Origin: Anaerolineales bacterium
GTDB lineage: Bacteria; Chloroflexota; Anaerolineae; Anaerolineales; UBA11858
Direction of reading: 5' to 3'
Assembly (NCBI GenBank): GCA_021161345.1
Contig: JAGHAU010000044.1
Coordinates: forward strand, 1 to 41,592
DNA: 41,592 bases
Position numbers and translations under genes: made by a program. The notes beneath the pieces were generated by a model. That model searched no databases, was not told the DNA's origin, and saw only the letters and a program-made list of their open reading frames with translations. Positions within the stretch are counted from its first letter, which is position 1; each line of letters opens with the position of its first letter. This document shows positions 35,613-35,658 of this stretch, in pieces.

Positions 35613-35658
35613 TTGACCAAATCTGAGGATGGATTATAATTCAGTGACTGAATTATAA
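35613..35658 (+). promoter_or_regulatory. Promoter-operator module B upstream of the wHTH regulator
   Basis: TTGACC (35613-35618), 16-nt spacer, TATAAT (35635-35640). A perfect 11-bp-arm palindrome TTATAATTCAG-TGA-CTGAATTATAA (35634-35658) overlaps the -10. An SD (GGGAGTGAGG) and the ATG at 35678 lie downstream. Confidence 0.65.

Follow-up and report, generated by a model that had tools for sequence, protein, structure and literature searches.

Homologues of REG, the regulator treated here, and the named genome matches assign the source of this DNA to Chloroflexota, order Anaerolineales. Does the palindrome that overlies the -10 element in front of a small regulator gene in an Anaerolineales glycan locus serve as the operator of that regulator, and which genes would be controlled through it? 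The DNA analysed here (the window) is a stretch of 41,592 nucleotides, the + strand of which carries an ABC-transporter-dependent glycan locus (Table 1). In this locus, the gene of a 153-aa protein, here called REG, is preceded by a promoter (P1) fused to a dyad (O1), and a second copy of the arrangement (P2 and O2) lies on the wzm/wzt side of the locus. The gene content of the window and of two related loci (L001 and L004) suggests that the exported polymer contains an N-formylated amino-6-deoxyhexose and possibly sulfate. Sulfotransferases and ATP-sulfurylase/APS kinase are encoded in relatives.

Table 1. Positions of the promoters, predicted operators and genes of the glycan locus in the window.
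Feature	Position	Strand	Remarks
PMT_2-type glycosyltransferase	24163-26169	+	
Promoter P2, TTGACA-N16-TATAAT	26208..26235	+	12/12 match to sigma-70 consensus
Hexamers of P2	TTGACA 26208-26213, 16-nt spacer, TATAAT 26230-26235	+	
Operator O2 (predicted), TATAATTCA-GTTAT-TGAATTATA	26230..26252	.	homologous sites directly upstream of wzm in L022, L006, L117
ORF297, 297 aa, family unknown	26281..27174	-	convergent with P2/O2; homologues share the same convergent position
wzm	27382-28224	+	
wzt	28265-29560	+	
Formyltransferase	29587-30480	+	
SDR epimerase/dehydratase	30489-31478	+	
DegT aminotransferase	31504-32637	+	
GT4 glycosyltransferase	32640-33929	+	
dTDP-glucose 4,6-dehydratase	34133-35215	+	
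-35 hexamer TTGACC of P1	35613..35618	+	read in sequence; TTGAC invariant across aligned orthologous upstream regions
-10 hexamer TATAAT of P1, inside left operator half-site	35635..35640	+	invariant in 77/77 protein-first sites
Operator O1 (predicted), TATAATTCA-GTGAC-TGAATTATA	35635..35657	.	no covariation outside fixed half-sites
Conserved core of O1, AATTCA-N5-TGAATT	35638-35654		
Shine-Dalgarno region of REG gene, GGGAGTGAGG	35664..35673	+	read in sequence; GGGAG/GAGG motifs
REG, regulator, 153 aa	35678-36139	+	
gmd, GDP-mannose 4,6-dehydratase	36204-37271	+	co-directional with REG
fcl-like GDP-6-deoxyhexose synthase	37268-38248	+	co-directional with REG
Protein of 295 aa, family unknown	38367-39254	+	synteny in L001, L004, L006
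GT2 glycosyltransferase	39268-40257	+	synteny in L001, L004, L006

Two promoters with an embedded dyad

The first-pass annotation of this DNA had claimed a near-consensus promoter with a perfect palindrome over its -10, and both are present: TTGACC-N16-TATAAT spans 35613-35640, and TTATAATTCAG-TGA-CTGAATTATAA spans 35634-35658, although its arms, given as 11 bp, are really 12+1+12 nt because the central TGA is itself T.G.A. With one mismatch, a repeat finder extends the arms to 16 nt (35630-35645 / 35647-35662). The placement just before the regulator also holds, the distance from the end of the palindrome to the ATG (35678) being 19 nt. P1 matches the sigma-70 consensus at 11 of 12 positions, on the assumption that sigma-70-like rules apply in Anaerolineae, and only two other sites in the 41.6 kb of the window score 11/12. 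At both sites the layout is of the sigma-70 type, with -35 and -10 elements at a 16-nt spacing and a dyad overlapping the -10 and the predicted start. We also considered a divergent promoter on the bottom-strand TATAAT and rejected it, as there is no -35 on that side and the outer bases of the right arm drift to TTTTG, TTTTA or ATTG in many relatives; this drift removes the bottom-strand TATAAT there, and a divergent promoter is therefore not conserved.

A second copy of the pattern had been reported at 26229-26252, and the dyad was found at 26230-26252. The claim that the pattern recurs nowhere else in the window stood up as well: TATAATTCA-N5-TGAATTATA has exactly two sites when up to three mismatches are allowed, no weaker extra site being found in the window at that tolerance. 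In 100 dinucleotide shuffles, the mean expectation was 0.02 matches and no shuffle contained two or more; the chance figure of 0.01 quoted earlier for the palindrome is arithmetically correct for uniform composition (41592 x 4^-11). Rfam and tRNA scans of the window for an RNA element at the site gave only a tRNA-Arg at 5869-5943. Elsewhere in the window, a perfect inverted repeat with 13-nt arms (AAAAGTCCAGTCG-N6-CGACTGGACTTTT, 3912-3943) lies between two minus-strand ORFs and is probably an intrinsic terminator unrelated to the operator finding.

The second site requires a closer look at its surroundings, since P2/O2 faces the 3' end of the minus-strand ORF297 and wzm begins only 1.1 kb further on. 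The dyad at this position is confirmed, but it does not stand directly before a + strand gene of the window. Homologues of ORF297 with 44-68% identity occur in L001, L052, L057, L070, and L104, where the 3' end lies ~30-85 nt from the wzm-type operator and is always convergent with it. Searches with ORF297 gave no match in Pfam (also with E up to 10), NCBIfam or PDB sequences; the protein may contain a methyltransferase-like GxWxG motif. In relatives without ORF297 (L022, L006, and L117), the homologous site stands immediately before wzm. Distant lineages have one operator heading the whole string and the lineage of the window has two strings, each with a copy of its own; on this ground P2/O2 is assigned to the wzm/wzt string despite the intervening convergent ORF. 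The immediate target of P2 is uncertain, given the distance to wzm, and the recurrent pairing of ORF297 with the operator hints that P2 causes antisense read-through or transcriptional interference. The string from wzm through the dTDP-glucose 4,6-dehydratase gene (27382..35215) is presumed to be under P2 control, and the interval between REG and gmd contains no predicted terminator.

The dyad before REG homologues and across genomes

Three exact-protein look-ups yielded six loci with REG homologues of 82-93% identity, and all six carry the exact motif, equally far from the start codon in each. When those orthologous upstream regions were aligned, TTGAC and both half-sites were invariant and the flanks had diverged, as had the spacer in L004. 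A metagenome scan with an alignment of REG homologues showed that at least 569 stretches encode a relative, of which we retained the 80 best (59-97% identity); as two of these have REG at the contig end, without upstream DNA, 78 loci were testable. In every one of these 78 (from the best 80 of at least 569), the site ends 2-62 nt upstream of REG, in agreement with the expectation that the motif would recur in related genomes, and the apparent conservation is slightly inflated as sites were picked with up to three mismatches allowed. One locus (L185) carries a second site 2.7 kb further upstream besides the REG-proximal one.

Across the 77 unique protein-first contexts, positions 1-9 (TATAATTCA), 15-19 (TGAAT), and 22 never vary; the variable positions are 20, 21, and 23 only, giving TGAATTTTG, TGAATTTTA or TGAATATTG, with a weakly biased spacer and a prominent TTGAC box at -21 to -17. 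In the left arm, the outer TATA persists since it belongs to the -10. The recognition site originally proposed is thus retained as a dyad, while the conserved recognition core is narrower than proposed, namely AATTCA-N5-TGAAT(T). In a REG clade of 49-58% identity (L016, L019, L030, L031, L033, L035, L047, L056, L061, L064, L065, L074, L094, L096, L105, L108, L112, and L119), the start codon overlaps the last operator base (TGAATTATATG, then a conserved Glu codon), so that the leader would be ~10 nt long and devoid of a Shine-Dalgarno sequence if transcription starts in the dyad centre.

Independently of the protein, the exact 18-base pattern was searched in 185,579 genomes, one per species, which returned at least 120 stretches. 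Chloroflexota account for 57 of the 120 matches listed, mostly titled Anaerolineae, Anaerolineales or Anaerolineaceae. It had been left to such a search whether the motif is enriched in glycan-locus promoters or is a common dispersed repeat. Among the matches listed, 55 of the 57 Chloroflexota sites head REG, gmd, wzm or an ORF297-wzm unit (tblastn); with these 55 of 57, the exact motif in Chloroflexota is confined to the REG/gmd/wzm promoters of glycan loci, which answers for enrichment and against a dispersed repeat. In a first class of these listed Chloroflexota, a REG homologue follows the site immediately, with identities as low as 49%. Other sites stand before gmd in loci where this gene comes ahead of REG or is the first of its string (L015, L023, L039, L045, L050, L083, L097, L114, and L116), directly upstream of wzm (L022 and L117 among the matches listed), or by the 3' end of an ORF297 homologue followed by wzm (L052, L057, L070, and L104, as in the window and L001). 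Sites with one mismatch were found 64 nt upstream of wzm in L006 and as second operators in L063, L070, and L116.

The promoter context separates these sites from matches elsewhere. A perfect gene-facing TTGAC exactly 16 nt upstream was found in 41 of the 57 Chloroflexota matches listed but in none of the 63 from other taxa, of which just one reaches 4/5 of TTGAC at 16 nt. One of the two exceptions within Chloroflexota, in a MAG (L124:3019-3041), has the exact motif with a flanking 4-bp palindrome between a 158-aa ORF and a split DegV gene; no -35 box accompanies this site and no REG, gmd or wzm is nearby, which leaves a stray site or a regulon member so far overlooked as the two readings. For the other exception (L059), the target is off the retrieved stretch. 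Outside Chloroflexota, nine matches come from high-GC Rhizobiaceae/Phyllobacterium (L018, L028, L036, L067, L068, L069, L076, L086, and L087, of Rhizobium, Ensifer/Sinorhizobium, and Phyllobacterium), where the 18-nt pattern lies inside a conserved TGAATTATAATTCA-N5-TGAATTATATTGACA element that precedes a sugar ABC-transporter binding-protein gene (L036:2353-3450) by ~70 nt. The rhizobial elements, near which no REG homologue was found, are presumably operators of an unrelated regulator, so that the sequence also occurs independently of REG. Most remaining non-Chloroflexota matches listed are from low-GC loci; for this reason, and as none has TTGAC at 16 nt, we took them as chance matches.

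The number of sites per locus follows the arrangement of the genes. Where the DNA suffices to read downstream of REG, gmd-fcl follows in close relatives and (gmd)-fcl-wzm-wzt in distant ones. In the distant lineages, one operator heads the whole REG-fcl-wzm-wzt string; where the operons are split, there is a second operator. The window locus consists of two strings, each with its own promoter/operator, and hence the motif occurs exactly twice.

REG and known regulators

The winged-helix identity assigned to the 153-aa product from its translation was corroborated by profile searches, in which Pfam HTH_24 (49.1 bits), MarR (27.9 bits, cut-off 24.6), and MarR_2 (29.2 bits, cut-off 27) scored above their cut-offs. 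REG thereby passes the gathering scores of the MarR family HMMs (PF01047 / PF12802), its Pfam matches being confined to residues 9-57, the HTH. It lacks the canonical MarR architecture of a wHTH flanked by N- and C-terminal dimer helices. In the AF2 model (pLDDT 85.9), a winged helix (5-65) is followed by a long helix (67-104, a single stretch of 38 residues) and a small alpha/beta domain (109-152). The best Foldseek matches were HcaR, MepR, SlyA, and FabT with TM of 0.4-0.5; residues 9-75 of REG align to 57-123 of 5eri, and the MarR proteins of the PDB align from residue ~45-57 on.

Among REG homologues that are 49-93% identical overall, the wHTH segment (residues ~33-70) is nearly invariant, with the sequence VAVGT(V/I)NWH(I/L)KR...KGYVK(A/V)KRAQRKKLRYIITPEG, and the C-terminal domain diverges. 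This near-invariance of the wHTH parallels the invariance of the half-sites. The C-terminal domain (about 105-153) is modelled in the order beta-alpha-beta-beta-beta, and the only residues in it that never vary are Cys126 in LTC(L/I/M)E and some Gly, Leu, and Pro. A profile search of PDB sequences for relatives of this domain gave nothing significant, nor did Foldseek with a separate model of residues 98-153 (best E = 0.46). The domain is a candidate sensor or oligomerisation module.

The closest family description is TIGR04176 (MarR family EPS-associated transcriptional regulator). REG residues 5-103 align with positions 2-104 of the 105 of the model (E = 3.7e-19), and the exopolysaccharide-locus setting of the family is shared, REG lying between the wzm/wzt-glycosyltransferase genes and gmd/fcl. 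REG resembles the family in this whole-model alignment and in its polysaccharide biosynthesis setting, but differs in scoring 68.7 bits, below the curated cut-off of 88, and in having an extra C-terminal domain of ~50 aa. REG is most aptly placed in an uncharacterised subfamily from Anaerolineae that is akin to the EPS-associated MarR regulators. We know of no published operator for the TIGR04176 family.

A broader comparison is offered by the MarR autorepressors (e.g., E. coli MarR/marO, MepR, OhrR, SlyA, and FabT), with which REG has the winged helix-turn-helix in common. These proteins act on a 17-23-bp dyad operator over the promoter of their own operon and control the adjacent gene cluster, as is predicted for REG. 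They differ from REG in their N-terminal dimerisation helices, which are absent from REG, where the wHTH begins at residue 5, and REG in turn has the extra alpha/beta domain without detectable relatives, the structural similarity to MarR proteins amounting to TM of just 0.4-0.5. To our knowledge, studied pairs of a transcription factor and its operator are very scarce in Chloroflexota, Rdh2R being the only one that we can name. In Dehalococcoides mccartyi, reductive dehalogenase genes are reported to be under the control of Rdh2R, a MarR-type protein (Krasper et al., 2016; cited in PMC7755780). Rdh2R resembles REG in being a MarR-type local regulator in Chloroflexota, one of the few studied, and differs in belonging to the class Dehalococcoidia, in its target genes, and in its canonical MarR architecture. 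Our searches of the literature on TIGR04176, EPS-associated MarR proteins, Anaerolineae MarR operators, and Chloroflexi regulons found no description of REG or the motif, and no paper on a studied transcription factor-operator pair in the largely uncultured Anaerolineae.

Predicted repression by REG and competing explanations

Taken with its constant position before REG, the dyad TATAATTCA-N5-TGAATTATA is very probably REG's own operator; that REG also represses through it both its own operon and transcription towards wzm/wzt is, in our judgement, probable. Binding, repression as its direction, the position of the starts, and the existence of an effector are what we infer from the following layout. 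Each copy is fused to a near-consensus sigma-70-type promoter, the -10 of which forms the outer part of the left half-site, and transcription would be expected to start in the 5-nt spacer, at about 35646-35648 (site 1) and 26241-26243 (site 2). The centres of ATTCA and TGAAT are 10 bp apart, a spacing suited to a dimeric wHTH, and a REG dimer could place its two recognition helices in the major grooves of these half-sites, one helical turn apart. The wings of MarR-DNA complexes usually sit in flanking AT-rich bases. Bound REG would occupy the DNA from the -10 to about +10 and thereby keep RNA polymerase off; such steric repression is the most likely mode because the promoters are near consensus and both the -10 and the predicted start lie within the site. 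A strong promoter with a site over these two elements is the standard repression geometry of bacterial repressors. Through O1, REG would repress its own REG-gmd-fcl-glycosyltransferase operon (negative autoregulation), and through O2 transcription that runs towards the genes for wzm/wzt export and sugar modification. REG may thus act as a local, dedicated switch of an ABC-transporter-dependent cell-surface glycan locus, with repression relieved by a signal that is presumably read by the C-terminal domain.

Some copies in relatives carry more than this. Five wzm-type copies are extended to perfect hairpins of 17-22 bp (L022:5192-5238, L070:3562-3608, L052:6150-6190, L104:1896-1934, and L006:2151-2187). 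Their flanks differ between loci yet are complementary, they have T-rich tails, and they fold at -17 to -32 kcal/mol (z of -3.8 to -10). An extension of the palindrome by at least 4 bp was found in 10 of 141 unique sites as against fewer than one expected by chance, and some wzm-type homologous sites in relatives have the stable stem-loop and U-tract expected of intrinsic terminators, the window sites being without the extension. This suggests that in the extended copies a terminator is superimposed on the promoter/operator; alternatively, and as speculation, they could stem from a palindrome-extending template-switch mutation. Conceivably, though we regard it as rather improbable, the ~45-bp promoter/operator is a portable cassette that was copied to the second operon and would terminate, start, and be gated by REG from one hairpin, with interference at ORF297 and sensing by the C-terminal domain. 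The extended hairpin with its U-rich tail would then end the upstream operon and the next operon would start inside the hairpin loop; the pairing with ORF297 would give rise to regulated antisense transcription or transcriptional interference; and the C-terminal domain with its invariant Cys would be a new sensor through which expression of the locus responds to redox status or to glycan precursors.

Returning to repression from the plain dyad, we consider it unlikely that REG binds the dyad but activates transcription or has a dual role (promoter remodelling or anti-repression). Some MarR/SlyA-type proteins do activate transcription, the effector domain of REG is novel, and the direction of regulation is read from the layout only. 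However, the promoters already match the consensus at 11-12 of 12 positions with a near-optimal 16-nt spacer, so that no activator is needed, and the position of the site over the -10 and the predicted start is typical of repressors.

We assign a similarly low probability to the explanation that the conserved sequence is a promoter or initial-transcribed element, or the site of an unlinked factor, with REG as a passenger gene that always comes first. The left arm does hold the -10 itself, co-localisation is correlative, and a similar pattern occurs in Rhizobiaceae that have no REG beside it. Yet TGAAT in the right arm varies no more than the left arm does (77/77) though it has no promoter role, the dyad symmetry fits a dimeric wHTH that is conserved in parallel, and among the matches listed the gmd and wzm sites occur only in genomes or loci of the REG clade.

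It is very improbable that the palindrome acts as a nucleic-acid hairpin, be it an RNA structure or an intrinsic terminator or insulator against transcription from upstream, and not as a site for a protein, even if the five extended wzm-type copies, with their long perfect stems and T-rich tails, show that such structures exist in relatives. The two window sites are unextended and fold weakly (site 1, -13.8 kcal/mol, z = -2.9; site 2, -9.4 kcal/mol, z = -1.5); neither was found in the terminator scan, and no T-tract follows site 1. Over the 141 unique contexts, with columns taken as independent, complementarity between symmetric positions beyond the fixed arms does not exceed chance (e.g., 10/14 in 78 contexts against 70 expected, and 0/24 in 47 against 49). 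The arms are conserved as sequence and not just as pairing, and a transcript started at the promoter would hold the right arm only. With weak folding and no covariation, we rejected the hairpin or terminator reading for the window sites; invariant half-sites, a free spacer, and the lack of pairing covariation are therefore better accommodated by a protein site. Lastly, chance matches in AT-rich intergenic DNA, for which the AT-rich motif and its scattered exact matches in AT-rich genomes of unrelated taxa could be cited, are ruled out by the shuffles (two sites observed against a mean of 0.02), the alignment of upstream regions, and the presence of the site in 78 of 78 protein-first loci.

With repression by REG as the preferred reading, REG and its operator would most likely function as a classic MarR-type local autorepressor, ordinary and unsurprising in kind, and a standard local autorepressor leaves the knowledge of regulation unchanged in concept. 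Its value lies in the precision of the prediction, which specifies a protein of 153 aa, a site of 17-23 bp, two promoters, and as targets GDP-6-deoxyhexose synthesis and Wzm/Wzt export. This prediction holds in 78/78 testable metagenome loci and in about 45 loci of the genome collection, and it could anchor regulon annotation in Anaerolineae. As the promoter is of the sigma-70 consensus type, it is directly testable in E. coli, where it might serve as a compact repressible promoter part.
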